Of a stretch of DNA of 64,000 nucleotides, positions 28,513 through 61,087 are shown piece by piece. Source of the DNA: an uncultured Bdellovibrionales bacterium (GTDB lineage Bacteria; Patescibacteriota; Minisyncoccia; Moranbacterales; UBA2206); assembly GCA_964538685.1 (NCBI GenBank), contig CAZIFD010000001.1:116295-180294 (forward strand), read 5' to 3'. Position 1 is the stretch's first letter. The number at the start of each line of letters is the position of its first letter. The notes below the pieces were generated by a model. That model worked only from the letters and a program-made list of their open reading frames with translations. It was not told the origin of the DNA and ran no database searches. The position numbers were made by a program, and so were the translations under genes.

Positions 28513-28545
28513 ACAAGAAGCGCTTTCTTAGGGCGCTTCATTTTT

Positions 28546-30992: not shown

Positions 30993-31000
30993 TTAGTTCT

Positions 31001-32596: not shown

Positions 32597-32600
32597 AATT

Positions 32601-42945: not shown

Positions 42946-42951
42946 TTTATT

Positions 42952-43590
42952 ATGAAAATTATTACAATTTCCGGAGTGGACGGAAGCGGAAAATCCACTC
43001 AAATAAAATTATTGGCGGAATATTTGCAAAAAGAAGGCTTTCAAGTTTTCTATTTTCATGCGGTGGAATTTTCGCTAGCCGGAAAAATAGCCAATCTAAA
43101 AAAATATTGCTGGCTTTGCCAGATTCTGGGTAAATGTAAAATCAAAAAAAATGATTCTGATTTTCACAAGAATGACATTCAAGGGAAAAGTGTAATCAAG
43201 GCGAATTATGTCCAGTTATTTTTACGGAAGATTTTTTTGCGAATTGATATTTTTCGTTTTCAGCAATTACTTAAAAAATTAGAAAAGCAAGGTTGTGATT
43301 ATATTTTGAGCGATCGCTATTTTTTTGATTCGGTGGTTAATATTGAATATTTGAGCCATAAGAATTTTGAATTTGGTTTTCCCAAAAACATAATTCCCGA
43401 AAAATCTTTTTATCTATCGGTTTTGCCTGAAGAAATTATGAAAAGAGAAAGAATTCCCGACCAAGGATTGGAATATTTAATGGAAAAACAAAATATATTT
43501 TCAAAAAAAATTGAAAATTGGAAGCTGTTGAAAATTGACGGTAATCGAAAAAAAGAAGAAGTTTTTGAGGATATTTTGAATAAAATATAA
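42952..43590 (+). CDS. Divergent dTMP-kinase-like P-loop kinase
   Basis: P-loop ITISGVDGSGKSTQ and the DRY motif ILSDRYFFDS of the thymidylate kinase family. No TREPGGT motif. Confidence 0.55.
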   Translation: MKIITISGVDGSGKSTQIKLLAEYLQKEGFQVFYFHAVEFSLAGKIANLKKYCWLCQILGKCKIKKNDSDFHKNDIQGKSVIKANYVQLFLRKIFLRIDIFRFQQLLKKLEKQGCDYILSDRYFFDSVVNIEYLSHKNFEFGFPKNIIPEKSFYLSVLPEEIMKRERIPDQGLEYLMEKQNIFSKKIENWKLLKIDGNRKKEEVFEDILNKI

Positions 43591-43599: not shown

Positions 43600-45081
43600 A
43601 TGTCTCATAAAAATTTGGTAAAATCGGTTTTTTGGGTTACTTTGTCGGAAATAATTTTCAATTTATCCGGTTATGTTATTCATAGTGCGGTAGGGCGAAT
43701 TTTGGGTCCTTCTGATTATGGTCGCTATGGTTTGGTGGTGACGCTCACCACTATGGTAATTATCCTCATTGGTAACGGAATCCCAACGGCGATGAGCAAA
43801 TATTTAAGTGAAGTTTTTGAAAGCCGTCCGGGAATGATTTCAATTATCAAAAAACAGGCTATCCGTCTTCAGTTTATTTTAATTGGCGGAATTACACTTG
43901 TTTTCTTTTTTTTGTCTCCGGTTATTGCTTGGCTTCTCAAAGATTCAACCTTGACTCCCCTTTTTCAAATTTCTACTTTGATTATTCCGGCTTTTGCGGC
44001 GGCTTCTTTTTATTTTTATTATTACACCGGTCTTCATGAATTCAAATTGCAATCAGTCCTGAAAACCGTTCGTTCGGTTTTGAAAGTGGTGGCGATTATC
44101 AGTTTGGCTTACTTTTTTCAACTCAAAGGTTCGGTTGTCGGCTATGTCGTCGCTCCCGGATTGGTTTTTTTAGTTGCTTTTCTTATTGACAAATTTTGGA
44201 TTTCCAAGAAAATAGCGCTTAGAATTCAAAAAAAAGAAACGACTGGAGAATATCTTTTTGACTACAAAAAACTTATCAACTACGCTTGGCCTTTGACTCT
44301 TTTTATGCTTTTTTATGAATTTTTAATCAGCATTGACTTATATTTGGTCAAAGGTATTTTGGAAAATGATTATCTGACAGGGATTTACAACGGAGCGCTC
44401 ACGGTTGGTCGTTTGCCGTATTATCTTTTCTACGCTCTGTCAATAATTCTTTTGCCGGTAATTTCCAAAACCACTTTTGAAAATCGCCATAGCGAAACTC
44501 ACAAAATTGTTTCTCAATCGCTTCGCCTGATGGTAATTCTGCTTTTCCCGGGAGTGATTTTGATGTTAGTTTTCGCTTTGCCGATAATTCAGTTTTTTTA
44601 TGGATCGGAATTTTTAGCTTCTGCTATCCCAATGTCCATTCTTTCTTTGGGAGTGGGGTTCTTGACAATTTTCTATGTGATGAGTTTCGTGGTGAATGGA
44701 GCGGGCAAGGTGAGAGTGCCGATGTGGATCAGTTTCTGGGGTCTTTTGATTAATATTTTGCTTAATTATATTTTCATCAAAAATTGGAGCATTGTCGGCT
44801 CAGCCACGGCTACCTCTATCACTTCTTTTTTGATTATGTTGGTTATGCTTGTTTTCGTCAGAAGAGAATTCGGGGTTTTTCTCAGATTAAAAAGTCTTTC
44901 AAAAATAATTTTAGCTTCTGCGACGATGCTTTGGGTTTCAATTTATCTTCCAAAAACCGAAGACACTTTTATTTTTTATGCTATCTTCCTTTTGGCAATT
45001 TATTTTGCGGTTCTTTTGGTACTTCAGGAAATTAAAAAAGAAGACTGGCAAGTCTTCCGGAAACTGACTGGAAAGAAATAA
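43600..45081 (+). CDS. Wzx/MOP-superfamily polysaccharide (oligosaccharide-lipid) flippase
   Basis: About 14 TM helices. N-terminal pattern (WVTLSEIIFNLSGYVIHSAVGRILGPSDYGRYGLVVTL) is typical of the polysaccharide-biosynthesis flippase family. Confidence 0.75.
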   Translation: MSHKNLVKSVFWVTLSEIIFNLSGYVIHSAVGRILGPSDYGRYGLVVTLTTMVIILIGNGIPTAMSKYLSEVFESRPGMISIIKKQAIRLQFILIGGITLVFFFLSPVIAWLLKDSTLTPLFQISTLIIPAFAAASFYFYYYTGLHEFKLQSVLKTVRSVLKVVAIISLAYFFQLKGSVVGYVVAPGLVFLVAFLIDKFWISKKIALRIQKKETTGEYLFDYKKLINYAWPLTLFMLFYEFLISIDLYLVKGILENDYLTGIYNGALTVGRLPYYLFYALSIILLPVISKTTFENRHSETHKIVSQSLRLMVILLFPGVILMLVFALPIIQFFYGSEFLASAIPMSILSLGVGFLTIFYVMSFVVNGAGKVRVPMWISFWGLLINILLNYIFIKNWSIVGSATATSITSFLIMLVMLVFVRREFGVFLRLKSLSKIILASATMLWVSIYLPKTEDTFIFYAIFLLAIYFAVLLVLQEIKKEDWQVFRKLTGKK

Positions 45082-45087
45082 AAATAA

Positions 45088-45117
45088 CCCTCAAGGCACC
45101 TTGTGGCTTCTTGAGGG
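45088..45117. terminator. Bidirectional terminator-like hairpin CCCTCAAGG-N12-CTTGAGGG
   Basis: 8-9 bp stem between the Wzx stop (45081) and the stop of the minus-strand 43-aa ORF (45128). A/T-rich flanks on both sides. Confidence 0.45.
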
Positions 45118-45127
45118 AGGGGGTTGT

Positions 45128-45259
45128 TTATTTTTCTTCTTTTTTCTTTATTCCTTCTTTTTCTTTATTCGGTTCCTCCTCCAATAACGGAGGAACATAA
45201 ACCAGTCCCCCAAGTGCTATGGGAGTTCCATATTTTGGGCACGGCTCTTTTTTTGCCAT
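45128..45259 (-). CDS. Candidate 43-aa small protein (MAKKEPCPKYGTPIALGGLVYVPPLLEEEPNKEKEGIKKKEEK)
   Basis: Not in the ORF table. Very strong SD (AAAGGAGGGG) 7 nt upstream of the ATG, terminator hairpin right after the stop. Lies in a 734-bp region with no ORF of 60 aa or more. Confidence 0.3.
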   Translation of the reverse strand: MAKKEPCPKYGTPIALGGLVYVPPLLEEEPNKEKEGIKKKEEK

Positions 45260-45815
45260 TTTTTTCTCCCCTCCTTTATCCAACTATAAAATTATAAATT
45301 AAAAAATAAATATTATCAAATCTTTTAATTTTTTGGCAAAATAAAAACCCCGAAGCGTTGCGCACCGCTTGGGGGTGTGGGTAGGGGCTTTAGAATAGGC
45401 GCGACCTATTTTAAAGCCCCTTCATACATTACATATTTTCATCTTTTTCTCCTTTCTTGCGGTTTTTCATTTTTCTATTTTTTTCTGATGGGCGCCAGGC
45501 CAAGGTATTATTAAGAGGTGATGGGAGGCGACATGGCGACTCCTCCTTTCTTGTTTTGCCACTCCCTTGCCCAAGAGAGTGGCGGGGTTTTTGAATAATA
45601 TTCTCTCGCTTTTTCTCGCTTCCAATTTAAATTGGATTGGAATTAAAATAATTTAAATCCAAATCAAGTTGGAAACGAGAAAATTTTCAAAAAAGATGAA
45701 AAAATATGTAAAGAACTTTTTTACGCTTCTTGAGCGTAATGGTGGAGTATAGCATATCACGATAATCTTGTCAAGCGTTTTGCTTGTTTTTGGCTAAAAT
45801 AAAGGATTTTTTTTG

Positions 45816-47339
45816 CTATTTCCAGCGGTAAACACTCACCTTTCCTCGGACTTGAATGTTGTTTATTTTTTCCATTTTTTCTTCAATGAAGCTTTGGGCT
45901 TCTTTGGTAATGAAGACTTCATCATTATCGGAAAAAATCATCCAGCCGGACGGATTTTCGGCAATAATTTTTTCCAAGCGTTCCAAAGTAATTTTATTTT
46001 TATCCAATTCTCCCCCAAAGTCAAATACCGGAACTTTTTCTCCGGCAAAATAGTAATTGCGAAAATTACGAGCAATAAGAACATCGGAAGCAGTTTTGTT
46101 TTTTTTGAAGTAAGCGAAAATTTCCCGGTATCTGGGATTGTCGGAAGCGGAAGTCTGATTGTAGAAATTATCTTTTTGAAAAAAATAACCGAAGTTGGGC
46201 AAAAGCAAAAATGAGAGAGCAAGGCTGGCGCCGAAAATTTTGCTTTTGTTTTTGGAAAAATTATTTCTGAGAAAATCCGCCAAGCCATAGATTCCAGTGG
46301 CGACAAGAATAATTTTGAAAGACTGGACAAAAAAGATGTATTGATTGCCGGCATTCCGGTCCCAGAAGAAAACGGCCAAAATCAAAATGCCCAGAAACGA
46401 CCAAGAAAGCCAAAGTGTTTCTTTCTTGAGGTTGGCTTTTTTCCAGAGATAATAGATACCGAAAAGAATAAAAAATATTGCCAAAAGAGGAGCTTGGTAG
46501 TCGGACAGAACTTTGGAAACATAACTCCAGTGGCTGGTTAGTCCCAACCCGGCCAAAGCCGGTGAAACTTTTTCTTGAAAGAAAAGCAAGGAAAAAATCA
46601 AAAGCACCAATCCTAATCCCAAGAGAAAAGTGTATTTGTTGATTTCCAATTTCTTTTTTTCCTTTAATTTCCAAATGACTAGCGTGAGAATGTATCCGGC
46701 TAAAATGAAAACAATATTAACCGTGAGCAAATGGAGATGAAAACTGAGCGCTCCCAGAAGCAATGCCGGTAACAAATAAAAAGCATTTAGGGAAGTTTTA
46801 TTCCAGACAATTCTAAGTAGCTTATTTTCCCCTGAGTATTCTTTTTCCAGAAAACGAAAAAGAGTCCAAGAAAAAGCCAAGAAAATCGGGAAAAACATAG
46901 CGTACATTCTGAGTTTGCGGTCAAATTCAATTCCGTCCAAGCTCACCGCAAAAAGAAAAGCAGACAAAAGAGCAATAGTTTTGTTTCGGGTAAAATCTTT
47001 AGCGACAAGATAAATAAGAAGGATAGTTAAAATTCCCCAAAAAGCACTCACGCTACGAGCGGTGTTTTCGGTGGGTGGAAGGAATCTGAAAAGAGTGGCC
47101 GCTTGCCATTTGTAGGCCCAGGCTCGTTCGTCCCGAGGAGCGAATTCATTATCGGTGTTTATTTTTTCAAAATTGAAATCCCAATTTTTCCACTCCCCTG
47201 TTTGGGTATAAGCATAAGAAGAGTTAATATCCAGAAATTCGTCGGCGACAAAAGAATTTTCTCCTAATTTATGGAAGCGAAGAAAAGCTCCCAAAAGAAG
47301 AATTGCCAAGAGAACTAAAAAACTATAATTTTTTTTCAT
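45816..47339 (-). CDS. GT-C glycosyltransferase, PMT/ArnT-like (PMT_2 family)
   Basis: At least 11 TM helices. First-loop DE motif (FVADEFLD) in the position conserved in GT39/GT83 enzymes. Confidence 0.7.
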   Translation of the reverse strand: MKKNYSFLVLLAILLLGAFLRFHKLGENSFVADEFLDINSSYAYTQTGEWKNWDFNFEKINTDNEFAPRDERAWAYKWQAATLFRFLPPTENTARSVSAFWGILTILLIYLVAKDFTRNKTIALLSAFLFAVSLDGIEFDRKLRMYAMFFPIFLAFSWTLFRFLEKEYSGENKLLRIVWNKTSLNAFYLLPALLLGALSFHLHLLTVNIVFILAGYILTLVIWKLKEKKKLEINKYTFLLGLGLVLLIFSLLFFQEKVSPALAGLGLTSHWSYVSKVLSDYQAPLLAIFFILFGIYYLWKKANLKKETLWLSWSFLGILILAVFFWDRNAGNQYIFFVQSFKIILVATGIYGLADFLRNNFSKNKSKIFGASLALSFLLLPNFGYFFQKDNFYNQTSASDNPRYREIFAYFKKNKTASDVLIARNFRNYYFAGEKVPVFDFGGELDKNKITLERLEKIIAENPSGWMIFSDNDEVFITKEAQSFIEEKMEKINNIQVRGKVSVYRWK

Positions 47340-47360
47340 AGCGTTAATTGGTTAGTTGTT

Positions 47361-47520
47361 TTATTTTACTGGATTCCCGCTTTCGCGGGAATGACAATAA
47401 CTTTAGTTATTTTAATGAATTCTAGTTTTCGCGGGAATGACAATAACTCTGGTTGTTTTACTGGATTCCCGCTTTCGCTCGCTTCGCTGAAGCTTTATTG
47501 AAGCGGGTGGGAATGACAGT
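47361..47520. repeat. Tandem/degenerate array of the dispersed GC-rich palindromic repeat (core ACTGGATTCCCGCTTTCGCGGGAATGACAATAACT)
   Basis: One full copy (47368-47408), one half-copy (TTTCGCGGGAATGACAATAACT) and one copy with about 26 nt inserted into the palindrome (CCCGCTTTCGC[...]GGGTGGGAATGACA). The same core occurs at 12236-12270 and 61046-61077. Confidence 0.65.
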
Positions 47521-47571
47521 GATTGAGGAATTATTTAATTAATATTAGACACGAAAAATTGATTAATTTTT

Positions 47572-49353
47572 CTATTCCAGCTCTTCCTCATTCTCAGTTT
47601 CGGAAAATATTTCTTCCCAACGGTAGCGAACCGGAACACCGGGAGCGCTTTGGGGTTTTCCTTTGGGTTTAAAAACTTGCCGATCGGCGTTGATGGAAGC
47701 TTCTCTGGGAATTAAACGAAAAACAACCAGTGTTCCGAATTGTTTGGTTTCAAAAACATCAAAGTCGTTCATATATTTTCCGGTTTTTGAAGAAAGGTTG
47801 GAAAGAGTGGGATAAATCAAGAAATAATTGCCCTCTCGGTAGATGGTTTTGACATTGCGAAAATCATCTTGGGGGATGTTTCTTTTTTGCAAATGATAAA
47901 GGAAAGAACGACGAAAATAAGCGTCGCTGTTGATGTATGTCGGATAAGCGTTTTCTGCATAAACCTTTTCCATATAATCAACAATCAAGTATTGTTGTTT
48001 GAGAGTAACTCGGTTCTTTTCTTTGAGAATCCGGTCGGGATCAATTTCAAAAGATTGATAAGGAGCATTCGTCAGTTCTTGAAATCTTTTGTAAACCGAC
48101 AATGAATTGGAAAGAAGTAATAATAAAACGATTATTCCAATCAAAACCGCGGTTATTTTTTTATTTTTCATTAAATCTTCAAAAAATTGGAAAATCAATC
48201 CCAAGAAGACGAAAGGTAAGGCTCCAATCAGAAGAAAAAATCGGGGGGCAATGTCATAAGCTACGGGAAAAAATAATCCCAAAGAAACAACAAACCAAAT
48301 CAGGTTAAGCAATAAAAAATCTTTTTGGTGAGTGGGTCTTTTTTTGAATTGTTGAAAGTTTTTGAAAATTAAGATTCCGGCTCCGGAAGTGAAAAAAATG
48401 AGAGCCATAGCGCCAAAAGGCAAGTTTTCCCGGCAAGAAGCGTCGCAAGTGATGTCAAATGAGGTTAGGGAAAGTTGTTTGAACTTGGGAACTTCGGCTT
48501 TTTCCCGACTGCTTATGAGTAGAAAATATCCCAGGGAATTTTCCGAATAATCACGAACAGCTTTTTCAATCAAGGTGTGTTCATCGGTGGATTTTTTAGA
48601 AAAAGCTTTTTGAAATTCTTTGATGTTGTCTCCGCCGGTTTTAATGTCATTTAAAATTACGGGGAAATAAAAAAATAAAACAATTGCGATTGAAGCCAGC
48701 CAATAGCCGATTTTTATTTTTGGTCTTTTCACGATGAGATAAATCACAGCAATTGTCGGCACTGCCATAAAAGCCAAGAAATGGAGCTGAGTGACGATGG
48801 AAAGGGCAACGGCGAAAACCAAGAGCCAAATCCCTTTTCTTTTTTCATCCGGATAACTGATTTTCCGAAGCGCCAAAAAAGCCACCAAGGAGAAAAACGG
48901 AATGTTGTTGGGATTCCAGCCAAAATGGGAATACATAACAAAAAAAAGCGAAGTGGAAAAAAGAAGTGTCAAAAAAAGGGATCGTTTTTTTCCAAAATAA
49001 TCTTTGAGAAAGAAATATAAAACTATAATGGTGAAGCAGGAAAAAACCAAAGAAATTCCCACCATTCCAGGAGGGGTGGCGCCGAAAATCTTGGCGCTTA
49101 GATATTCAAAATAATAAAAAATCGGACCAAGTCGGAGAAAGGATCCGGCCGCTTTGGGACCAAGAAGAGGCAAATTTTCCACTCCTTCTTCCAATGCTAA
49201 GTCAATTACTTTGGCGTCTCGGGACTGATCCAGCTCAAAATGCAAAAAATCATTAAAATGATAGATTCGCAAATAGGCTCCCAAAAGAAAAATTAGCAAT
49301 AGAAAAAAATGGATTTTATACTTGAAAAAGAGTTCCTGAGCTTTATTTTTCAT
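47572..49353 (-). CDS. GT-C glycosyltransferase, PMT/ArnT-like (paralog of 52847..54403)
   Basis: N-terminal region collinear with 52847..54403 (LRIYHFNDFLHFELDQSRDAKVIDL...LGPKAAG...LGPIFYY vs LRLYDFSDLLRFNDDQVRDAIVVEK...LGPKAGG...LGPIFYY), then multiple TM helices and a C-terminal soluble domain. Confidence 0.7.
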   Translation of the reverse strand: MKNKAQELFFKYKIHFFLLLIFLLGAYLRIYHFNDFLHFELDQSRDAKVIDLALEEGVENLPLLGPKAAGSFLRLGPIFYYFEYLSAKIFGATPPGMVGISLVFSCFTIIVLYFFLKDYFGKKRSLFLTLLFSTSLFFVMYSHFGWNPNNIPFFSLVAFLALRKISYPDEKRKGIWLLVFAVALSIVTQLHFLAFMAVPTIAVIYLIVKRPKIKIGYWLASIAIVLFFYFPVILNDIKTGGDNIKEFQKAFSKKSTDEHTLIEKAVRDYSENSLGYFLLISSREKAEVPKFKQLSLTSFDITCDASCRENLPFGAMALIFFTSGAGILIFKNFQQFKKRPTHQKDFLLLNLIWFVVSLGLFFPVAYDIAPRFFLLIGALPFVFLGLIFQFFEDLMKNKKITAVLIGIIVLLLLLSNSLSVYKRFQELTNAPYQSFEIDPDRILKEKNRVTLKQQYLIVDYMEKVYAENAYPTYINSDAYFRRSFLYHLQKRNIPQDDFRNVKTIYREGNYFLIYPTLSNLSSKTGKYMNDFDVFETKQFGTLVVFRLIPREASINADRQVFKPKGKPQSAPGVPVRYRWEEIFSETENEEELE

Positions 49354-49417
49354 TTGTTTTAGGATAAAATTAGATCAATACTCTTTTAATTCTAAAATAT
49401 TTATAATCATTAAGCAA

Positions 49418-51793
49418 ATGGAAAAAATGAAAAAAATTAAAGACTTTTTGGCGGAGTTGGCTAGACCGGAATTTTTGGGATTGGTTGGAATTTCTTTATT
49501 ATCTTTTGTCGGCAGTCTTTTTTTTGTCGGTCGGGAAATATGGGAAATTGATTTTTGGAAGATTCTTGGCTTATCGTCAATTTATGCTCTTTTTGCCTTG
49601 TGTTTCTTGTCGTTTTTTGTTCACCAAGTTTATTTTTTTCGGAAAAACAAATTTGATTTTTTAGTTTTTTCCCGAAGAATTATCGGAACTTTTTTGTTGA
49701 CGGAAATTGTTTGGCTTTGGGGATTTTTTCAATCAAATCATTTCAACTACGCTTTCAAAATGTTAGCCGGATTGTTTGTGATCCTTTTTTGTTTCTATTG
49801 GATTTTCCGATACAAAAAATATTCCAAAATTTCCGATTTAGTGAAAGATTTTTCCGATTCATCGGTTTTGAGTTTTAAAAAAGACCGAGAGTTTCAAGTT
49901 CGTTTTCCTAAAATTTCCCATTGGCCGTTTTTTCGGGAAATTTTCCACTGGTTTTTTTCTCAAGGCTTTTTGGCCTCGCTAGTTCTTCTTTTGGTAATGT
50001 TTTTCAATTTGGGGTTTGGCAGTTATCATCTTTCCAAGTTTGCGGCGGTGGATGAGGCGCTTTGGACCAATGGGCGCATTACCAAATTTTGGAACAATGT
50101 AACGGAACGGGAATGGGAAAAAACCCGAGTTAGCGACAAACCGGGAATCACAGTGGCAATTTTAAGCGGAATCGGTTTGCTTCAGGTTGATCCGAAAGAT
50201 TATGAGCCAAAAAAATGGCAGGGAGAGGTTTTTCCTTCAGAAAAAAATATAGAGGAAATGAATTGGGCGTTTCGTTTTCCGATTTTACTTTTTAATTGTT
50301 TGATGCTTCCGGTTTTCTATATTTTGCTTAAGAAATTGTTGGGCCAAAAAACCGCTCTTTTGGGGTTGATTCTTGTTGGTCTTTCGCCTATTCTTCTTGG
50401 AATTTCAACCATTATTAATCCGGATTCTTTGCTTTGGGTCTTTGTCCCCCTTTCAGTTTTAAGTTATTTTGTTTATCTCAAGGACGGACAGAACAAATAT
50501 CTTTATTTGGCCGGAATTTTTGCCGGACTTTCTATTTTGACCAAATATGTGGCAAACATAGTTTTTGTTTTCTTTTTCGGATTGATCTTTTTGGAATATA
50601 TTTTCCATAATGAAAAATATAAAAAAATCGGATTTTCCCACTATTTCAAAAAAGGATTTTTGGATTATTTGGTGCTGGTTTTCTTTTCCATTTTAGTTTA
50701 TTATCTTCTGTTGCCGGAAGCTTGGGTGCGATTGGAAGTGCTTTTGGAAGGAACGCTTTTTTCCCAGGCTTTTGAAAAAGTTTGGCCGTTGTTTGTGGCG
50801 ATTGTCGCTTTGGTGGTTTTGGATATGCTGGCTTTCAAAAATAAATACAGCGGAATGTTTTTGGATTGGATTGCTCGTTTTAAAAACTATATTTTGGCAA
50901 CAGTCGGATTGGTTTTTGTCGGGTTGATTATTTTAACTTCAGTTAATACTTATTTGGGAATGCGCTGGTATGACTTGGAAGCCGCTTTGGCGTCTCCGAA
51001 ATCTTCTTATGCTGAGAGCGGATTTTTGGGATTTATGTTGGCGAATTTTTATTCCTTAATTTTTGGAATTTCCCCTTTGGCTTTTTTGGCAATGATTTTT
51101 GGTTCACTTTACGCTTCATTTTTCACCAAGAAGAAAGAAAATGTCGCTTGGATAGCTTATTTGATGATTTTTATTTTAATTTACTTTGTGGCTTCAACTG
51201 TCAATCATGTGGCGTCAACTGTGCGCTATCAAATCATTCTTTATCCATTTATCTTAATTTTAGCTGCCTATGGGCTGGGAATAATTGTAAATATTGAAAA
51301 GGTCAAAAAATATATTCAAGTTTGGTCTTTTTGCGGGGTTGTCATTATAATTTCGGTTTACAGCTTGAATTTTATTCGTCCTTTTTATTTCAGTTATGCT
51401 AGTGCTCTTCTTCCCAAAGAATATGTGCTTAATCTCAAAGATATGGGTGATGGTAGTTATGAAGCGGCTGAATATCTCAATTCTTTACCAAATGCCAACG
51501 AGCTGATGGTTTGGTCGGACAAACGAGGAGTTTGTAATTTTTTTGTTGGAAAATGCAAGAGTGGAACTGAACTTAAAAAAGAAGATGACAGGTCTGACTA
51601 TTTCGTAGTGTCGTCCGGACGGGAAAGCCGAACCAGTAAAATGGTGATTTCCAAAGTGGCAAACGGAGACGATTCTTTAATTAGGTTAGACAAGCTGTAT
51701 GGCGATGAAAATCCAGAATGGAAGTTGGAAATTGGCGGTCGGCCGAATAATTTCGTTAAAATAATCAGTCGGGAAAATTTAGCCGAAGAATAA
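49418..51793 (+). CDS. GT-C glycosyltransferase, PMT/ArnT-like, with about 190-aa N-terminal polytopic extension
   Basis: 791 aa. DE motif (AAVDEALWTNG) after an extra N-terminal TM bundle, then a PMT_2-like TM core and a C-terminal soluble domain. Confidence 0.6.
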   Translation: MEKMKKIKDFLAELARPEFLGLVGISLLSFVGSLFFVGREIWEIDFWKILGLSSIYALFALCFLSFFVHQVYFFRKNKFDFLVFSRRIIGTFLLTEIVWLWGFFQSNHFNYAFKMLAGLFVILFCFYWIFRYKKYSKISDLVKDFSDSSVLSFKKDREFQVRFPKISHWPFFREIFHWFFSQGFLASLVLLLVMFFNLGFGSYHLSKFAAVDEALWTNGRITKFWNNVTEREWEKTRVSDKPGITVAILSGIGLLQVDPKDYEPKKWQGEVFPSEKNIEEMNWAFRFPILLFNCLMLPVFYILLKKLLGQKTALLGLILVGLSPILLGISTIINPDSLLWVFVPLSVLSYFVYLKDGQNKYLYLAGIFAGLSILTKYVANIVFVFFFGLIFLEYIFHNEKYKKIGFSHYFKKGFLDYLVLVFFSILVYYLLLPEAWVRLEVLLEGTLFSQAFEKVWPLFVAIVALVVLDMLAFKNKYSGMFLDWIARFKNYILATVGLVFVGLIILTSVNTYLGMRWYDLEAALASPKSSYAESGFLGFMLANFYSLIFGISPLAFLAMIFGSLYASFFTKKKENVAWIAYLMIFILIYFVASTVNHVASTVRYQIILYPFILILAAYGLGIIVNIEKVKKYIQVWSFCGVVIIISVYSLNFIRPFYFSYASALLPKEYVLNLKDMGDGSYEAAEYLNSLPNANELMVWSDKRGVCNFFVGKCKSGTELKKEDDRSDYFVVSSGRESRTSKMVISKVANGDDSLIRLDKLYGDENPEWKLEIGGRPNNFVKIISRENLAEE

Positions 51794-52843
51794 ATGACTA
51801 AAAAAACAAAAATTTTTTTTGCAGTTTCTTTGCTTCTGGGATGTGTGGCGATTGTCGGAGGAAATTATTTTTTGTCGTTTAATCGGAAACAAAAAAAAGA
51901 AAAGGAAATCTTGCTTCAAAAAGAAAAAGATGCTGAATTAAAAATAGGTGTTATAACCGATATTCACGCTTGTGTGGAAGGTTATCCCGATTTAAACCCT
52001 TTTCTTCTCGCTACCAAAGAAGCAAGAACTGATTTTAATGTAAGTTTGGGAGACAATATCAATTTCAGAGTTGGTAATTGTTCCGCTTCTTATCAGGCGG
52101 ATTTATCTTGGGTGACGGAAAAACTCAAATTAGCTGAGCCGTTTCATTGGGTTTTGGGTGACCATGATATTGGGGACGAGAATTCAGTAGTTTTTTGGAA
52201 AGAAAAAACCGGGAAAAACAAAGAGTACTATTCTTTTGATAAAGGAGATTTTCATATTGTCATTCTGGATACGATTTTGGGAGGAGATGAAATGCGATTA
52301 AACTGTTCTTTGGACGAGAAGTGTTTGTTGGCAGAAAATAATTATAAAGAAATCAAAAAAATTTCCAAAAATCCAATTGAAAAAAAGGTTTTTATTGAAA
52401 AAAATAAGTTGGACGAGGTTGGTTTGGAACAGCTTTTGAAAGAAAGATTAGAAGCGTACGAAAAAGAACTGGATGCGGTCAAATGGGTTCGTTCCAGTGG
52501 AAGAAGAGATATCGGCCGAATCGGACAAGCACAACTGGATTGGTTGTTAGCGGATTTGGCGGGATCGCAAAAAAGCAATGTGGTGGTTTTTTCCGATCAT
52601 CCTTTGTTTCATTTCATTTCTCATCGGAAAGAATATAACATTGAAAACGGAGAATCAGTCAGGAAAATTTTGGAATCATCAGGAAAAGAAGTGGTGGCGA
52701 TTTCCGGAGAAGCGCATCTTTGGCACGAGGAAAATTTAAACGGGATTCATTATTTCATTATTGATCGTTTCTCTGGCAATGGAAGTTTTGCTGTTTTTAA
52801 TTGGAACAAAGACGGATTTCGTTTGGAAAAATTTCCCCGTTAA
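51794..52843 (+). CDS. Calcineurin-like metallophosphoesterase, membrane-anchored
   Basis: GVITDIHAC, GDHD, ...GEAH metallophosphatase motifs. N-terminal TM. Start abuts the stop of the upstream GT-C gene. Confidence 0.75.
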   Translation: MTKKTKIFFAVSLLLGCVAIVGGNYFLSFNRKQKKEKEILLQKEKDAELKIGVITDIHACVEGYPDLNPFLLATKEARTDFNVSLGDNINFRVGNCSASYQADLSWVTEKLKLAEPFHWVLGDHDIGDENSVVFWKEKTGKNKEYYSFDKGDFHIVILDTILGGDEMRLNCSLDEKCLLAENNYKEIKKISKNPIEKKVFIEKNKLDEVGLEQLLKERLEAYEKELDAVKWVRSSGRRDIGRIGQAQLDWLLADLAGSQKSNVVVFSDHPLFHFISHRKEYNIENGESVRKILESSGKEVVAISGEAHLWHEENLNGIHYFIIDRFSGNGSFAVFNWNKDGFRLEKFPR

Positions 52844-52846
52844 AAA

Positions 52847-54403
52847 TCAAAAGGCTTGGAAGATTGTGTATTTTCCCAAATCTTTTGAATCTTGGAAAAG
52901 ACTGCTTTCGGGCAGTTTTTTTCTTTTGGATTGAGAAAAGTTTTTCTTGATGATAAAATGACCATCGGGACATTCTTCTTCGGAGCAAGAATGAAGTTTT
53001 ATATTTTCCTTCTTAAGAAGATAGTCAAGAGCGTCTTGATATTCAAAATTAGCCACAAAAACATCTTTGGAATCAGTGTGAGTTGCAATGTATTTTGAAA
53101 TGAGATTTCCGTTTTTCAATTTGAATCCTCCATAGTAACCGCCATATTCATCATCATTTTCCAGTGGTGCGAAATAAACGAAATTAAAAGTTTTTAAATT
53201 GAAAAAAACCAGCGATAAAACAATAAAACCGATAAAAATCATTCCTTTTCGGGAAAATTTTTCTTCAACAAATTTGAAAATTAGCCCCAGAAAAACAAAA
53301 GGAACAGGCAGGATAACCATAAGCATTCGCAATGAAATGGTGTCATCAATGGGAACAAGCGCCAAAAAGAAAAGTCCAAGATACCCCAAAATTATTTGCA
53401 GAAAAAATTTCTTCTGTTTGTCGGATTCTTTTTTCAAATAATAACAAGATAAAATAATTCCTCCCAAAACTACGATCAAACCGAAAGATAAGACTGAAAT
53501 ATTTTTCAAAGTTTTTCCGTCGTCTTTGAGATTGAAAATATCGCATTTGTCGCTGTTTCGGAGAGAAGATAAAACAAAAACATTTCCCTGAACCAAACAT
53601 TCGGCGTTTTTCCAAACCGAAGCCTCACTTCCCTCTTCCGTTTCTATCTTTCCCGAAGCTCCATGAATCAGGGACAAAATATTTTCTCCGCCCGAGCGAA
53701 AGTCATACCAAAAAAGAGGAAAATTAAAAAGCAAAGCGACTAGTCCGGTGAGAATCAAGGCGGATATTTTTTGTTTCCAGTTTCTTTGGAAAAAAAATAG
53801 GAAAAAAATAATGGCTCCGGCTGGCCAAACAACCAGAAGCCAGCCATGCAATTGACTGCCGATTCCAATCAAAGCTCCCAAGGAGGCAATGAGCCACCAA
53901 GGATTTTTATCTTGCTTCAGTTCTTTGATTTTCATAATTAAAAGCAGAAACAAAATCAAGAAAAAAGGAATATCGTTGGGGTTCCAAGCGAAGCGGGAAT
54001 ATTTGATGGCGAAAAATGAAATTGAATAAAGAAAAGAAAGGGTTAGGGCGATTCGTGGTGAAAAAAAATGGCGCATCAAAAGAAAGAAAAGAAGAATGGA
54101 AGCAATAGAAAGAATTGGTGTCGCTAAAGCGATTCCTTGGGGGGAGTTGCCAAAAAGCAAAGCGGAAAAAGCGTGAAGATAATAGAAAATTGGTCCCAAA
54201 TTAAATTTAGTACCTCCGGCTTTGGGTCCGAGAAAAGGCAATTCTTCTCCTGAGGTTATTTTTTCCACTACAATCGCATCACGAACTTGATCGTCGTTGA
54301 ATCTAAGAAGATCGGAAAAGTCATAAAGTCTGAGAAAAGTTCCCAATATCAAAATTAAAAACATCAACGCCAGAATTAAATTTTTTGGTTTTTTCCAATT
54401 CAT
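52847..54403 (-). CDS. GT-C glycosyltransferase, PMT/ArnT-like
   Basis: See paralog 47572..49353. First-loop motif DDQVRDA. Confidence 0.7.
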   Translation of the reverse strand: MNWKKPKNLILALMFLILILGTFLRLYDFSDLLRFNDDQVRDAIVVEKITSGEELPFLGPKAGGTKFNLGPIFYYLHAFSALLFGNSPQGIALATPILSIASILLFFLLMRHFFSPRIALTLSFLYSISFFAIKYSRFAWNPNDIPFFLILFLLLIMKIKELKQDKNPWWLIASLGALIGIGSQLHGWLLVVWPAGAIIFFLFFFQRNWKQKISALILTGLVALLFNFPLFWYDFRSGGENILSLIHGASGKIETEEGSEASVWKNAECLVQGNVFVLSSLRNSDKCDIFNLKDDGKTLKNISVLSFGLIVVLGGIILSCYYLKKESDKQKKFFLQIILGYLGLFFLALVPIDDTISLRMLMVILPVPFVFLGLIFKFVEEKFSRKGMIFIGFIVLSLVFFNLKTFNFVYFAPLENDDEYGGYYGGFKLKNGNLISKYIATHTDSKDVFVANFEYQDALDYLLKKENIKLHSCSEEECPDGHFIIKKNFSQSKRKKLPESSLFQDSKDLGKYTIFQAF

Positions 54404-55362
54404 ATTTTTTTTATTTTTTTATTTTTAAGATAAAGTGGCAACGCAAAAAAACTGATTAACATTTGAACAGTCCGGCTGATAATGGCTACAGTCAGAACTC
54501 CGGCCGGATTGAGTCCGAAAACTCCGAAAAAAGTGATATAAGCCCATTCTTTGAGTCCGATGTTGTTGACACTGATTGGAATGGAAGAAACAATGGAAAT
54601 TAAAAAAACAACCGACAAATAATCCAACAAACCGATTTTTATATCTAAAGCCAAAAAAAGAAGATAATTCAGAAGGGCTACGCCGACAATGGAGAAAAGA
54701 ACGGAATAAGTAATTGACTGGACGACAATTTTTTTGTCCTTGTTGTAGTTTCCCAATTCTCTCAAAAATTCAATGAATTTTTCCGGTGCTATTTTGAAAA
54801 CTATCTTTTTGAGAAACTTTATTTTTCTTATTTGAGGAATAAGAATGTCCGAACCGCAAGACAAAACAAGGATAATGTTAATAACAAAAAGTGTTTCGTC
54901 GGCAATTACTTTTTTCCAGTTGAGCAAACTGAAAAACAACGCCAAAAAAGTGGCGCCAATCAATCCGGTAATGCGATCCATCATTACGGTTGATGCAGCT
55001 TGAGAATATTTTTCATCTTTCTTCCCGATTTCATAAGCTTTGTAAGCGTCTCCGGCGATAAAAGACGGCATAAAATTATTAATGAAAGTGCCGGTGAAAT
55101 ACAGTTTGAAAAAAGTAAAACCGGAAAAATTAAATCCTTTGTATTGAGACAAAATTTTCCATTTGTGGGAAGACAGCCAAAAGCTCAAAAACAATACGCC
55201 GACATAAGCTATCAAATACCAAGGATTGATTTCTTTGACATAAAACAAAACATCCTGCCAGTTGGTGGACCAAACAATCCAAGCTAAAAAAACCGCGCTG
55301 ACGATTATTTTGATGGCAGTTTTTAATTTTTTATTTAGTTTTGGTTTTTTCATAAAATTCAA
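54400..55362 (-). CDS. UPF0104 / LPG-synthase-TM 'flippase-like' membrane protein
   Basis: 8 TM helices, N-terminal Lys-rich segment. Family resemblance to PF03706 is from memory. Overlaps both neighbours, so likely translationally coupled. Confidence 0.55.
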   Translation of the reverse strand: MNFMKKPKLNKKLKTAIKIIVSAVFLAWIVWSTNWQDVLFYVKEINPWYLIAYVGVLFLSFWLSSHKWKILSQYKGFNFSGFTFFKLYFTGTFINNFMPSFIAGDAYKAYEIGKKDEKYSQAASTVMMDRITGLIGATFLALFFSLLNWKKVIADETLFVINIILVLSCGSDILIPQIRKIKFLKKIVFKIAPEKFIEFLRELGNYNKDKKIVVQSITYSVLFSIVGVALLNYLLFLALDIKIGLLDYLSVVFLISIVSSIPISVNNIGLKEWAYITFFGVFGLNPAGVLTVAIISRTVQMLISFFALPLYLKNKKIKKI

Positions 55363-56482
55363 AATATTTTTCAGCCACTTTTTTCCAACTCATCTCTTCG
55401 GCTTTTTGGCGACTTTTTTGAGACATTAATTCTTTCTGTTCGGGATCTTGAATGAGTTTTTCCACTTTTTCGGCAATGTCTCGGGCATCTTTCATTTTGA
55501 CAATAAATCCATTTTCGTTTTCACTGACTAGTTCCCGAGTGCCTCCGGTGTCAGTGGCAATAAGGGGTAGTCCGGAAGCAAGAGCTTCCAACATGGTGTT
55601 AGACATTCCTTCGTTGAGCGACGGCAAGACAAAGACATCTGATGTGGCATAAATCGTAGCTACTTTTTCGTGGGGAACGCGACCCAAAAACTCAATTTTG
55701 TTTTTTAGGGCAAGTTTTTGTGCTTTTTCTTCCAACTCTTTTTTGGCATCCCCTTCTCCGGCTAAAATTAGTTTTATGTCGGGATATTTTTCCGAAAGCA
55801 ATGAAACAGCTTCAATGAGATATTCAATCCCTTTTCTTTGAGTGAGTCTGGATATGCATACTAACCTAAAAATATTGTCTTGGCCGATTTTATTTTTTGG
55901 TTGAAATTCCTGAATATCAACTCCGTTATGAATGACCCCAATCTTTTGATCAGGAGCGGATATTTTTGCCAAATCTTTGAGTCCTTGACTGTTAGCAATA
56001 ACAAAGGAAGATTCTTTCCATATTTTTTTAATAAGCGGAGTGATGATTTTATAAAGAAAAGAAAAGCGTTCGCTGTAGCCCGGAACATCGGCGCCACGCA
56101 AAGAAACAATATAAGGCAAATGATATTTTTTCCAAAATAAAAAAGACAAAAATCCGCAAGGAACAGTAAAAAAAGAATGGGAAAGGTCAAATTTTTTCTT
56201 TTTGAGCAATCGGCGACAAAAAAAGAAAGCTTTCCACGAATAGATTAAAAGATCTTTTTGAGATTGATAATGAAGATTTTCGGAATTTTTTCCAATTGGC
56301 AAACGATGAATGACAATGTTCCCTCTTATTTTTTCTTGGGAATAATTTTTGTCTATGGAAGAAGTTATGAGTTCAATTTCAATTTCAGGAAAGCGGGAAA
56401 ATTCCTCAAAAATATATTGAGTGGCGTTAGCGGCTCCTCCGCCAAGAGGCGGATATTCGTAATTAAGGAAAAGAATTTTCAT
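55331..56482 (-). CDS. Glycosyltransferase family 4 (GT-B)
   Basis: MKILFLNYEYPPLGGGAANAT...EGMSNTMLEALASGLPLIATDTGG. Confidence 0.8.
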   Translation of the reverse strand: MKILFLNYEYPPLGGGAANATQYIFEEFSRFPEIEIELITSSIDKNYSQEKIRGNIVIHRLPIGKNSENLHYQSQKDLLIYSWKAFFFCRRLLKKKKFDLSHSFFTVPCGFLSFLFWKKYHLPYIVSLRGADVPGYSERFSFLYKIITPLIKKIWKESSFVIANSQGLKDLAKISAPDQKIGVIHNGVDIQEFQPKNKIGQDNIFRLVCISRLTQRKGIEYLIEAVSLLSEKYPDIKLILAGEGDAKKELEEKAQKLALKNKIEFLGRVPHEKVATIYATSDVFVLPSLNEGMSNTMLEALASGLPLIATDTGGTRELVSENENGFIVKMKDARDIAEKVEKLIQDPEQKELMSQKSRQKAEEMSWKKVAEKYFEFYEKTKTK

Positions 56483-56493: not shown

Positions 56494-57801
56494 TTAATTT
56501 CTCCCTACTCCAAAATATTCAAATCCGGCATCTTTCAGAGTTTGCGGGTCATACACATTTCGGAGATCAACAAAAACCGGTTTTTTCATTAATTTTTTAA
56601 TTTTAGACAAATCCAGCGAACGGTATTCATTCCATTCAGTCAGAAGAACAAGGCATTCGGCGTTTTTGGCGACTTCATAGGGGTCGCCCACATATTCAAT
56701 TTCCGGCATCAATTCTTTGGCGACTTTCATTGCTTCAGGATCGTGCGCTTTAACAAGGGCGCCTTTTTCAGAGAGAGCGGTTAAGATTGTGAGAGCGGCT
56801 GCTTCACGCATATCATCAGTTTCCGGCTTGAAAGCCAAACCTAAAATCCCGACAGTTTTTCCTGACTCATTTCCTCCTAAAGCTTTTTTAACTTTCTGGA
56901 CCATCCGAGCTTTCTGGGCACTGTTGACTTCAATGACGGTCTCCACAATGCGACTGGGAGCGCCGTGTTCTTGAGCGATGCGAGTGAGGGCGTGAGTATC
57001 TTTGGGAAAACAAGATCCGCCGTAGCCCGGACCGGGATGCAAAAATTTTGGTCCGATTCTTTTGTCCAGTCCCATTCCTTTGGAAAGAGCGGTAATATCG
57101 GCGTTGATTTCTTCGCACAAATTGGCCATTTCATTAATGAAGCTGATTTTGGTAGCCAGAAAGGCGTTGGAAGCGTATTTGATAAGTTCGGCGGTTTGCG
57201 GATTAGTAACCACCATTGGGGTTTCAATAAGGTAAAGCGGTTTATAAATATCCCGCATCACTTTTTCGGCTTTTTTGGTTTCTACTCCAATAACCACTCG
57301 GTCAGGACGCATAAAATCATCAATTGCAGCTCCTTCTCGCAAAAATTCCGGATTGGAAACTACATCAAATTTGGCTTTCTTGTTGGTTTCTTTGATGATT
57401 CTCTTGACTTGTTTGGCTGTACCGACCGGAACGGTGCTTTTGTCAATAACGGCAGTGTAGTGATTGATGTGGGGCGCAATTTCTCGGGCGGCTTCATAAA
57501 CAAAAGATAAGTCGGCATAGCCGTCGCCACGACGCGAAGTTGGAGTTCCGACAGCAATAAAAACCGCATCCATATCAGTTACGGCTTTTTTGGTTTCAGT
57601 AGTGAAAGAAAGTCTTTTTTCCTTAACATTTTTAGCTACCAACTCGTCAAGTCCGGGTTCGTAGATTGGAATTTTTCCTTTCTCCAAGGCTTCAATTTTT
57701 TTCTTGTCTTTGTCTAAGCAAATCACACTATTGCCAAATTCTGCCAAACAGGTGCCACTGACGAGTCCGACATAACCTGTTCCAATGATGCCGATTTTCA
57801 T
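56494..57801 (-). CDS. ugd: UDP-glucose 6-dehydrogenase
   Basis: GTGYVGLVSG Rossmann, catalytic-Cys GGSCFPKD. 435 aa. Confidence 0.85.
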   Translation of the reverse strand: MKIGIIGTGYVGLVSGTCLAEFGNSVICLDKDKKKIEALEKGKIPIYEPGLDELVAKNVKEKRLSFTTETKKAVTDMDAVFIAVGTPTSRRGDGYADLSFVYEAAREIAPHINHYTAVIDKSTVPVGTAKQVKRIIKETNKKAKFDVVSNPEFLREGAAIDDFMRPDRVVIGVETKKAEKVMRDIYKPLYLIETPMVVTNPQTAELIKYASNAFLATKISFINEMANLCEEINADITALSKGMGLDKRIGPKFLHPGPGYGGSCFPKDTHALTRIAQEHGAPSRIVETVIEVNSAQKARMVQKVKKALGGNESGKTVGILGLAFKPETDDMREAAALTILTALSEKGALVKAHDPEAMKVAKELMPEIEYVGDPYEVAKNAECLVLLTEWNEYRSLDLSKIKKLMKKPVFVDLRNVYDPQTLKDAGFEYFGVGRN

Positions 57802-57805: not shown

Positions 57806-58744
57806 TTATCTTTCGCTTATTTTTTTAATTTTGTAATTCATATGACCTTGGTTTTTGTAATAATTTTTGACCATAATATCAGCCAAGAGTCCGAAAACAA
57901 AAAGTTGGATGCCAATCATAATCAAAAATACTCCAACTAGTGGCCAAATTTTTTCACTGAGCGAAGTTCCAAAAAATATTTTTTCTATTAACATCCAAGC
58001 CAAGACAGCGATTCCGAGAAGCGACAAAACGATGCCACTGCCACCGAAAAGGTGAAGTGGTCGGTTGGAATATTTTCGCCAAAACCAAATGGAAATCATA
58101 TCTACAAAACCTTTGACTCCCCTTTTCCAATTATATTTGGTCTTGCCGTGAATTCTGGGATGATGTGATACCTTAACTTCGCCGACTTTGTAGCCTTCCA
58201 ATTCCAAGATAGCCGGAATAAAACGATGCATTTCTCCAAAAAGATCAACATCTTGAAAACATTCTCTTTTGTAGGCTTTGAGCGAACAACCGGAATCGTG
58301 AATTTTGTCTTGAATCAGAATTTTTCTGAGAAGATTGGCGGTTCGGGAAAAGAATCGTTTGGAAAAAGTGTCTTTTCTATCAAATCTCCAGCCGGAAACC
58401 ACATCAAACCCTTGGCTTATTTCAGAAAGAAGAAGCCGGATGTCGGCTGGATCGTTTTGGAGGTCGCCGTCCATTGTGATGATTATTTCTCCGTTTGCAT
58501 TTTTGATGCCGGCGTCAAAAGCGGCGGTTTGGCCGAAATTTTTTCGGAATTGAATCAGCTTGAGAGGTGTTAGTCCTTCGGTTTCAGAAACGGTTTTATC
58601 TTTGGATCCGTCGTCAATAAAAATTATTTCATAACTTTTTCCCAATGACTCGCAAGCCTCTTTGATTTTTCGGTGCAATTCTTTGACATTCCCCTCTTCG
58701 TTGTAAAGTGGCACGACAACTGACAGTTCTTTGGTGTGTTCCAT
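57806..58744 (-). CDS. GT2 polyprenol-phosphate glycosyltransferase (DPM1/GtrB/ArnC-like)
   Basis: LSVVVPLYNEEGNV...IFIDDGSKDKT...MDGDLQ plus two C-terminal TM helices. Confidence 0.75.
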   Translation of the reverse strand: MEHTKELSVVVPLYNEEGNVKELHRKIKEACESLGKSYEIIFIDDGSKDKTVSETEGLTPLKLIQFRKNFGQTAAFDAGIKNANGEIIITMDGDLQNDPADIRLLLSEISQGFDVVSGWRFDRKDTFSKRFFSRTANLLRKILIQDKIHDSGCSLKAYKRECFQDVDLFGEMHRFIPAILELEGYKVGEVKVSHHPRIHGKTKYNWKRGVKGFVDMISIWFWRKYSNRPLHLFGGSGIVLSLLGIAVLAWMLIEKIFFGTSLSEKIWPLVGVFLIMIGIQLFVFGLLADIMVKNYYKNQGHMNYKIKKISER

Positions 58745-59452: not shown

Positions 59453-59464
59453 AACAGCTAATTT

Positions 59465-61077: not shown

Positions 61078-61087
61078 CAAAAAAAAT

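Follow-up and report, generated by a model that had tools for sequence, protein, structure and literature searches.

A conserved locus of Moranbacteria carries an array of GT-C glycosyltransferases from three old subfamilies, which may act in succession on one envelope glycoconjugate

A stretch of 64,000 nucleotides from contig CAZIFD010000001.1 (assembly GCA_964538685.1, positions 116,295 to 180,294 of the forward strand; hereafter the window, numbered from its first letter) carries, at 45816..54403, four open reading frames (ORFs) for polytopic glycosyltransferases of the GT-C type. An initial annotation, made from the sequence alone, had described them as four clustered paralogs with different acidic motifs in the first loop, possibly drawing on common lipid-linked sugar donors. 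All four ORFs were found at the coordinates it gave, and each of the motif strings it quoted occurs as written. Homolog searches assign the source to Candidatus Moranbacteria/Moraniibacteriota (Patescibacteria). We call the enzymes A, B, C and D; they and their loop-1 motifs are as follows.

45816..47339, minus strand: GT-C enzyme A, 507 residues, core member of the array, from a family nearly without Pfam coverage
47229..47252, minus strand: loop-1 motif of A, FVADEFLD (residues 30-37; D33, E34, D37)
47572..49353, minus strand: GT-C enzyme B, 593 residues, core member directly upstream of A, DQxRD family
49213..49236, minus strand: loop-1 motif of B, ELDQSRDA (residues 40-47; D42, Q43, R45, D46)
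49418..51793, plus strand: GT-C enzyme C ('long C'), 791 residues, core member with an N-terminal extension of four transmembrane (TM) helices
50045..50065, plus strand: loop-1 motif of C, AVDEALW (residues 210-216; D212, E213)
52847..54403, minus strand: GT-C enzyme D, 518 residues, accessory paralog of B in a variable slot
54275..54298, minus strand: loop-1 motif of D, NDDQVRDA (residues 36-43; D38, Q39, R41, D42)

The assignment of all four proteins to the GT-C/PMT_2 type was upheld by Pfam for B, C and D, and by AlphaFold and Foldseek for A and D. On PMT_2 (PF13231; gathering cut-off 26.1 bits) B, C and D score 40.5, 53.4 and 52.2 bits, respectively, and A falls below the cut-off with 18.9 bits; as 20 out of 48 members of the A family match the model at E<=0.01, the family is a marginal PMT_2 relative. 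Since sequence searches of the PDB came up empty (see below), structures were predicted for the two least certain cases, A and D. The AF2 models (predicted local distance difference test (pLDDT) 91.9 and predicted TM-score (pTM) 0.92 for D; pLDDT 90.4 for A) matched solely GT-C enzymes in the PDB at a Foldseek probability of 1.0 (AglB, ArnT, STT3, PglB, ALG12/9/3, AftA/B, Pmt1/2/4 and DPY19). A polytopic core with a cytoplasmic N-terminus, a mark of GT-C(A) enzymes with their 7-13 TM helices, was seen in the AF2 helices of D and A, in the hydropathy of all four proteins and in the lysine/arginine bias of their families. The fold of the four enzymes is thus GT-C class A. NCBIfam also reported Agl23 matches of 23-31 bits, against a cut-off of 126; we judged these a mere reflection of the common PMT_2 core and rejected an Agl23 identity.

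C is the only one of the four to pass the PMT model PF02366 (39.4 bits, cut-off 22.7 bits), to which A, B and D gave no match. C also has the DE form of the motif, and source databases label relatives 'glycosyltransferase family 39'. At least one of the enzymes, most likely C, might then be a PMT-like transferase that glycosylates secreted or surface proteins (pilins, S-layer) during their export, in the manner of known actinobacterial PMTs that have a polyprenyl-phosphate mannose synthase as partner (PMC11727336). However, PF02366 also takes in ArnT-type enzymes, so the match of C does not discriminate between the two; Pfam reports no MIR domain, structure scores to PMT are no better than those to ALG12, AglB and ArnT, and the surroundings are rich in genes for polysaccharides (Wzx, Wzy_C, LytR-CpsA-Psr (LCP), TagA-like, GT4s) rather than for secretion. 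We therefore regard protein O-glycosylation as improbable.

The A model has its best Foldseek matches in STT3, AglB and PglB (E 1.6e-8 to 1e-6, TM-score up to 0.61), and gene A adjoins, in convergent orientation, a Wzx flippase gene in almost every locus that we compared. This would fit an oligosaccharyltransferase or ligase that moves a Wzx-flipped, diphosphate-linked oligosaccharide en bloc onto an acceptor. Nevertheless, ArnT is nearly as good a match to A, the A profile aligns with that of the ArnT-like B/D family from TM1 to TM4, and the window encodes a separate Wzy_C/O-antigen-ligase-type protein as well as an LCP ligase. In a comparison with the WWDYG family of AglB, PglB and Stt3, neither WWD nor W[WYF]D[YFW]G was found anywhere in A, B, C or D, whose C-terminal domains span ~100-135 residues. 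The missing WWDYG-type motif excludes the oligosaccharyltransferase class STT3/PglB/AglB (GT66) for all four proteins. We regard en bloc transfer by A as very unlikely.

In every one of the four proteins the acidic motif opens the first outside loop, directly behind a TM helix, with the N-terminus inside, in agreement with the periplasmic placement first proposed. In the D model TM1 spans residues 7-26, D38-D42 cap the next long helix (37-50), and further loop helices precede TM2, which begins at residue 94. In the A model TM1 is the helix at 3-22, and D33/E34 begin a helix at 32-47. By hydropathy, the motif of B follows TM1 at residues ~14-34, and C has four extra TM helices, a lysine/arginine-rich loop (residues 132-174), a TM helix at 175-206 and then the motif, whose placement in loop 1 comes from hydropathy and a low-confidence alignment. 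Averaged over each family alignment, the counts of lysine and arginine assign the N-terminus and the short loops that follow TM2, TM4 and TM6 to the inside, and loop 1, which is net acidic, to the outside. Thus, neither the models nor the counts place the motif in the cytoplasm or within a TM segment. The ~190-residue N-terminal extension reported for C is present and consists of four predicted TM helices ahead of the pre-motif helix; it is weakly conserved and is missing in relatives of C of 610-640 residues. At the other end of C, an invariant cysteine pair (C706 and C713) is consistent with an outside location of its C-terminal domain.

By BLAST, the paralogy of B and D is stronger than had been claimed, with 33.5% identity over 409 residues (E 1.7e-49), well beyond the first 150, whereas neither A nor C has a significant match to the other or to B/D. 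Only profile comparison connects A, B/D and C. The A and B/D profiles align with hhalign at a probability of 97%, from TM1 to TM4, with D33/E34/D37 on D38/Q39/D42. The B/D and C profiles are linked too, and a greedy alignment puts D212 of C within 2 residues of D38 of D with low confidence; hhalign found no link between A and ArnT, C and ArnT, or A and C. The four genes are thus clustered, as described, but apart from B and D they are not detectable as paralogs by BLAST, and fall into three deep subfamilies: A, B with D, and C. Within the second of these, a B-type lineage (median 592 residues, up to 57% identity to B) and a D-type lineage (median 540 residues, at most 41% identity to D) can be told apart, which points to an old duplication and separate lineages.

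Each subfamily keeps its motif, so that the strings are not there by chance. D33, E34, F35, L36 and D37 are invariant in the A family (48/48 sequences), as are V211, D212, E213 and W216 in the C family (50/50). In the B/D family (numbered as in D) R41 and D42 are invariant and D38 and Q39 are kept in at least 90% of sequences; W140, N141 and N143, in the next outside loop, are likewise invariant, and so are Q184 and H186 (the WNPN and QLH motifs). A search of 1.84 billion cluster representatives with the B/D profile returned 1130 proteins at E<=1e-30 and 4743 at E<=1e-10, and among 131 further top cluster representatives 118 have DQxRD and 4 have DExRD. The second residue of the motif is thus Glu in A and C, and Gln in B and D. 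Of the four different motifs originally listed, those of A, C and B/D do differ from each other; B and D, however, were separated as 'DQxRDA' and 'DDQxRDA', when in fact they share DQxRD, and Asp37, the extra Asp of D, is not conserved in the family.

The B/D profile aligns with Escherichia coli ArnT (K-12 record) over 173 columns, from TM1 to TM6 (E 3.8e-5, probability 70.7%), with DQxRDA on DETRYA of ArnT, so that positions +3 (Arg) and +5 (Ala) agree. On the curated ArnT equivalog model NF009784 (cut-off 567 bits) D reaches 17.2 bits, and A, B and C have no match. Judged by these profiles, the B/D family comprises distant relatives of GT83 ArnT rather than members. The first Asp of the loop-1 motif coincides in all GT-C structures (ArnT D55/E56, Pmt1 D77/E78, EmbA D281/D282; PMC7801869), and it is kept in A, B, C and D, where it appears to correspond to the universally conserved active-site Asp of the ArnT, PMT and Emb enzymes. 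GT-C families are already known to differ at the second position. The motif differences are marks of subfamily identity, there is no known code that leads from the second residue to donor or acceptor, and whether DE versus DQ is a signal of substrate specificity, as initially suggested, cannot be told. Variant loop-1 acidic motifs and donor sharing among GT-C enzymes are, moreover, both already well known.

The replacement of Glu by Gln throughout the B/D family could also be read as a loss of activity, with B and/or D taking no part in catalysis and instead assisting or regulating a DE enzyme in heteromeric GT-C complexes. B is always paired with A, and the heteromers Pmt1-Pmt2 and EmbA-EmbB are known (6p25, 7bvf). 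Yet B and D keep the universally required first Asp, with an invariant Arg-Asp one turn further on, the WNPN and QLH motifs of the other outside loops are invariant, and the Arg at +3 and Ala at +5 are those of an active enzyme, E. coli ArnT. Given also the DE form in 4 of the 131 representatives and the evident constraint on more than 1100 diverged cluster representatives, such a role for B or D is highly improbable.

The genes that surround the array in the window, and that were followed through other genomes, are listed here.

35741..36691, plus strand: second GT2, AglJ/PpgS/DPM-synthase-like, at the far end of the conserved block and syntenic across loci
43600..45081, plus strand: Wzx/MurJ-type flippase (Polysacc_synt 78.6 bits), convergent with A and beside it in nearly all loci
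51794..52843, plus strand: membrane-anchored calcineurin-like metallophosphoesterase (Pfam Metallophos 32.4 bits) with one N-terminal TM helix
54400..55362, minus strand: LPG_synthase_TM protein, MprF/YbhN/PplT-type and flippase-like (PF03706 141.7 bits, TIGR00374 92.5 bits)
55331..56482, minus strand: GT4 glycosyltransferase (Glycos_transf_1 158.8 bits), paired with the flippase-like gene
56494..57801, minus strand: UDP-glucose 6-dehydrogenase (TuaD-like 557.7 bits, NDP-sugar dehydrogenase 495.6 bits)
57806..58744, minus strand: GT2, ArnC/PgfS/GtrB-type polyprenyl-phosphate sugar synthase, at the head of the gene string that D closes

We mapped the gene families of the window with hidden Markov models onto 80 species-level loci around A homologs in GTDB genomes. 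The conserved block begins, on one strand, with the ArnC-like GT2, the UDP-glucose dehydrogenase, the GT4 and LPG_synthase_TM, followed by a variable slot. From the slot it continues with long C (~750-800 residues, on the opposite strand), then B, then A; convergent with A come Wzx, a dTMP-kinase-like gene, RtcB, a GT4, a small ORF, DUF6541, another GT4 and the AglJ-like GT2. Of 47 loci with full 10-kb flanks, 44 have a B ortholog, 12 an extra member of the B/D family and 9 a D-like gene, and of 58 loci with 8 kb upstream, 50 have long C and 29 a short C-type paralog. Orthologs of A (42-63% identity) occur in more than 100 genomes, and those of C are ~50% identical. A copy identical to A was also found, on a 188-kb NCBI contig. 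As the same gene order is found in dozens of species-level genomes, the clustering of the four genes is not due to chance. A, B and long C form a constant trio across Moraniibacteriota, and D is accessory. The slot between LPG_synthase_TM and long C may be empty or hold a short C, a B/D-family member or both, with zero to three extra GT-C genes; in the window it is occupied by D and the metallophosphoesterase, and elsewhere too it is repeatedly tied, by adjacency or fusion, to a phosphoesterase of this kind. That A, B and long C are fixed and co-ordered over a class-level lineage suggests that they carry out successive steps on one conserved product.

Minor differences in layout were seen around the trio. 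The spacer between A and B is 232 bp in the window (47339..47572) and 20-50 bp in other species. Between Wzx and A lie 734 bp (45082..45815) with several hairpins and a long palindrome at ~45610..45685, in which we found no ORF longer than 57 residues and no Rfam match; other species have almost no gap between Wzx and A, or else a metallophosphoesterase gene in that place. In another assembly of the same sequence (L001; Logan SRR5581382) the contig stops directly past gene A. In two genomes of Moraniibacteriota a tandem row of five B/D-family genes upstream of A replaces the usual B and C (L054:1554-9921 and L055:280-8465), a local expansion of the DQxRD family.

The initial annotation had imagined a fan-out, in which the four enzymes are independent transferases for different sugars, sites or polymers, all drawing on a common pool of lipid-phosphate sugars, with motifs that reflect their diversification. 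The use of one GT-A enzyme or flippase by several GT-C enzymes is indeed documented by experiment (GttA, CflA; PMC8035078), D is the only enzyme that stands in a gene string with a GT2, the slot before long C varies between species, and the tandem expansions just described also point this way. In contrast, A, B and long C stay together, in order and at 42-63% identity, in nearly every Moraniibacteriota species examined, unlike strain-variable decoration systems. In addition, B and D have one motif between them, and the motif differences track deep subfamily splits rather than recent divergence. A fan-out is therefore a poor description of the fixed, co-conserved set of A, B and long C and fits solely the variable slot of D; as an account of the four enzymes together we consider it unlikely.

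As had been noted, three of the four GT-C enzymes have no adjacent GT2. The exception is D, which closes a same-strand, operon-like string of GT2, UDP-glucose dehydrogenase, GT4 and LPG_synthase_TM whose ORFs overlap or abut. Candidate donor synthases do stand beside the array, which is flanked by two enzymes of the GtrB/ArnC type. The GT2 at 57806..58744 scores 169.2 bits on the ArnC model and 156.6 bits on PgfS, both under the equivalog cut-offs, and the GT2 at 35741..36691 scores 118.3 bits on AglJ and 83.1 bits on PpgS, with similarity to dolichyl-phosphate hexose transferases. Each has two C-terminal TM helices (229-260 and 264-293 in the former, 233-267 and 269-297 in the latter), and a GT-A domain followed by two such helices is, as far as their sequences go, the architecture of polyprenyl-phosphate sugar synthases. 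From these two genes in the block we infer a polyprenyl-phosphate-linked donor for the GT-C enzymes. Lipid-linked donors common to several of them are plausible by analogy and not new, having precedent in the systems cited above.

The LPG_synthase_TM gene shares 4 nt with D, at the start codon of D. It also overlaps the GT4 gene by ~30 nt in the window; the two overlap or abut in the loci of most species, and in two species they are fused into one protein of ~700 residues (L079:561-2663 and L087:1278-3359). The GT4 itself reaches 71 bits on the GlcNAc-PG synthase model, against a cut-off of 480, and has no specific similarity to lipid glycosyltransferases. The role of LPG_synthase_TM or Wzx as flippase is presumed.

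The metallophosphoesterase gene starts 1 nt after the stop codon of C. In other genomes the same domain forms the C-terminal part of fusions with B/D-family enzymes (P0012, P0013, P0015 and L009, the last at L009:3034-5748), with C-type enzymes (P0184, L007 at L007:3108-5858, L032, L047 and L066) and with the LPG_synthase_TM protein (L005:2166-4055). In the GT-C fusions no TM helix separates the phosphoesterase from the outside C-terminal domain, and in the flippase fusion an extra TM helix, after a very basic loop, precedes it. From these arrangements the phosphoesterase domain is predicted to face outward in every architecture. The window protein belongs to a subtype in which GDHD replaces GNH(D/E) and SGEAHxWH replaces GHxH, both conserved within the subtype; a search of the PDB with it gave weak similarity to purple acid phosphatase alone (E 0.1). 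We also considered the phosphoribosyl pyrophosphate (PRPP)/phosphatase-type pentofuranose system (PMC11127046) as an explanation of the phosphoesterase and dropped it, because the phosphatases of that system are cytoplasmic.

Taken together, we favour, at a probability of roughly 60%, successive transfers by GT-C(A) enzymes of three old subfamilies onto one envelope glycoconjugate, with D adding a lineage-specific step. The two flanking GtrB/ArnC-type GT2 enzymes would load sugars, one of them possibly derived from UDP-glucuronate, onto polyprenyl phosphate at the cytoplasmic face. The lipid-linked intermediates would be flipped by the LPG_synthase_TM-type protein and/or Wzx, and A, B and C would then transfer their sugars one after another, at the outer face, onto one conserved envelope glycoconjugate. 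Its candidates are a wall-linked polymer, a lipoglycan or a surface protein. D would add the lineage-specific step.

Several observations weigh against this proposal. Gene order in the small, compact genomes of the Candidate Phyla Radiation proves by itself no shared pathway, and synteny is just as strong for RtcB and the dTMP-kinase-like gene. When all four proteins were searched against PDB sequences, singly and as family profiles, no meaningful match came up, so the tie to characterised enzymes consists of Pfam, the one hhalign match at 70.7% and the predicted structures. Structure comparison singles out no nearest family, ALG12, PMT, AglB and ArnT scoring alike, and hence does not distinguish phosphate-linked from diphosphate-linked donors. 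The equivalence of the C motif to the others comes from its position and a low-confidence alignment, and there is no GtrA-type flippase in the window, although one was found in another locus (L007). Finally, the three families are without a biochemically characterised member, and Moranbacteria are uncultured.

The pairing and fusion of GT4 and flippase, together with the adjacent UDP-glucose dehydrogenase, also raise the possibility of a glycolipid primer that is extended by the trio, in which case the locus might be a lipoglycan assembly line specific to Patescibacteria. Here the GT4 and the MprF/PplT-type flippase would make and flip a primer, maybe glucuronosyl-diacylglycerol, with glucuronate from the product of the dehydrogenase. 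A, B and C would initiate, elongate and branch a glycan outside with polyprenyl-phosphate sugars, and the outward-facing metallophosphoesterase and the variable D would tailor the product. We regard this more specific version as tentative and rather doubtful. If true, this would be the first time that a pathway for a polymer resembling lipomannan or lipoteichoic acid is predicted in the Candidate Phyla Radiation; it would be run by three GT-C subfamilies with no characterised member, one of which has a DQxRD active-site motif.

Among known systems, the polymyxin-resistance pathway of ArnT (GT83) and ArnC resembles the locus in several respects: the B/D profile aligns with ArnT over TM1-TM6, the first-gene GT2 is most similar to ArnC, and Ugd feeds the Arn pathway as a UDP-glucose dehydrogenase is adjacent here. 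Unlike in ArnT, Gln replaces Glu, and the equivalog score is 17 against a cut-off of 567 bits. Among the scanned ORFs of the window there are no ArnA, ArnB, ArnD or ArnE/F-type domains, the ArnC-like GT2 and the UDP-glucose dehydrogenase alone being present. Patescibacteria are generally regarded as lacking lipopolysaccharide, which makes lipid A an unlikely acceptor. In Rhizobium, RgtA/B/C/D with RgtE are said to be a case of several ArnT-like GT-C enzymes served by one lipid-phosphate galacturonate donor. By that description the likeness lies in one GT2 feeding several ArnT-like paralogs, and in a uronic-acid donor from UDP-glucuronate; the acceptors there, however, are reportedly the lipopolysaccharide core and lipid A.

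A broader parallel is multi-component transmembrane glycosylation in Gram-positive and Gram-negative bacteria (GtrA/B/V, CsbB-GtcA-YfhO, GtlA-GtlB, GacI/J/K/L; PMC8035078). As there, a membrane-anchored GT-A enzyme would load polyprenyl phosphate, a flippase would turn the product over, and the sugar would be transferred by a polytopic GT-C enzyme that carries an acidic motif in one of its outside loops; GT-C genes are often unlinked to the synthase, and synthases and flippases serve several GT-C enzymes. In contrast to those systems, three to four GT-C enzymes of different subfamilies stand here in one conserved block, and an outward-facing metallophosphoesterase belongs to the set. The flippase candidate, in place of a GtrA-type protein, is of the LPG_synthase_TM/PplT type, paired and sometimes fused with the GT4.

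Another parallel is the synthesis of lipomannan and lipoarabinomannan in Corynebacterineae, polymers built by an array of GT-C enzymes (PMC3123699). It uses the GT4 enzymes PimA/MgtA, the GT2 Ppm1 and the serial GT-C enzymes MptB/MptA/MptC/MptD, and includes Cg-LM-B, which is anchored by GlcA-diacylglycerol (PMC2480597, PMC3123699). Different GT-C enzymes acting in series outside, a GT4-made lipid primer (hypothetical in our case) and a polyprenyl-phosphate sugar from a GT2 would be common to both, and the glucuronate anchor there recalls the UDP-glucose dehydrogenase beside the GT4 here. The likeness to the Mpt system is one of gene content, and the flippase type and phosphoesterase of the window have no counterpart there. 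In Pseudomonas (GpgS/GpgF; PMC12713373) and Clostridioides (HexS/HexF; PMC10128005), a GT4 paired with a YbhN/PplT-type flippase produces glycosylated membrane lipids, which the pair presumably also flips, and the LPG_synthase_TM-type domain has been proposed to be a general lipid translocator (preprint 10.1101/2022.03.11.483950). As in those pairs, the GT4 gene is directly followed by one of the LPG_synthase_TM family, here with the overlap and the fusions described above; unlike the locus, however, GpgS/GpgF and HexS/HexF operate without GT-C enzymes.

A literature search found no paper on GT-C arrays in Patescibacteria. The envelope chemistry of these bacteria is essentially unknown, yet the envelope must mediate attachment to host cells, and a locus conserved over a class-level lineage names the likeliest builders of a major surface glycoconjugate. 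The array defines three uncharacterised GT-C subfamilies, one with more than 1100 diverged representatives that carry Gln at the second acidic position and another, that of A, invisible to Pfam, and gene fusions tie it to an extracytoplasmic metallophosphoesterase and an MprF-type flippase. We see the main leads in the B/D family, for its size and its uniform DQxRD motif, in the Pfam-invisible A family and in the phosphoesterase and flippase fusions. The enzymes of the locus are concrete targets for heterologous expression, and for glycan and lipid analysis of enrichment cultures.

Other genes of the window touch on the same subject. At 37764..39701 (plus strand), between the GtrB-type GT2 with a GT4 on one side and another GT4 on the other, lies a gene of conserved synteny for a 645-residue polytopic protein with ~10 TM helices and weak DUF6541/DUF1616 matches. 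This is probably a further GT-C-like enzyme, and the window may then have five GT-C enzymes. Amid the glycan genes, 41449..43590 (plus strand) encodes the RNA ligase RtcB and a 212-residue P-loop protein with an N-terminal dTMP-kinase-like match alone. Their position is kept in more than 50 species (loci including L005, L007 and L009), and a link of either protein to glycan synthesis is not apparent.

A second glycopolymer set is encoded at 27676..33779 (minus strand) and 12293..12985 (plus strand) and includes a GT2, an LCP ligase, two GT4 enzymes, the Wzy_C/O-antigen-ligase-type protein and a distant TagA/WecG-type enzyme. This set points to a wall-linked polysaccharide, a possible acceptor of the GT-C enzymes. 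Beside the locus, 58889..61573 (plus strand) holds a complete nucleotide-heptose pathway (GmhA, heptose-7-phosphate kinase, GmhB and heptose-1-phosphate adenylyltransferase), and a GT9 heptosyltransferase-like fragment is found at the end of the window (63510..63989, minus strand). Such a pathway comes as a surprise in a lineage thought to lack lipopolysaccharide, and hints at a surface glycan with heptose.

Many genomes with the locus (L010, L013, L014, L021 and others) are titled 'uncultured Bdellovibrionales bacterium' in third party annotation (TPA) records. These titles look like mislabelled taxonomy, as the proteins are 42-56% identical to those of Moranbacteria and the synteny is identical.

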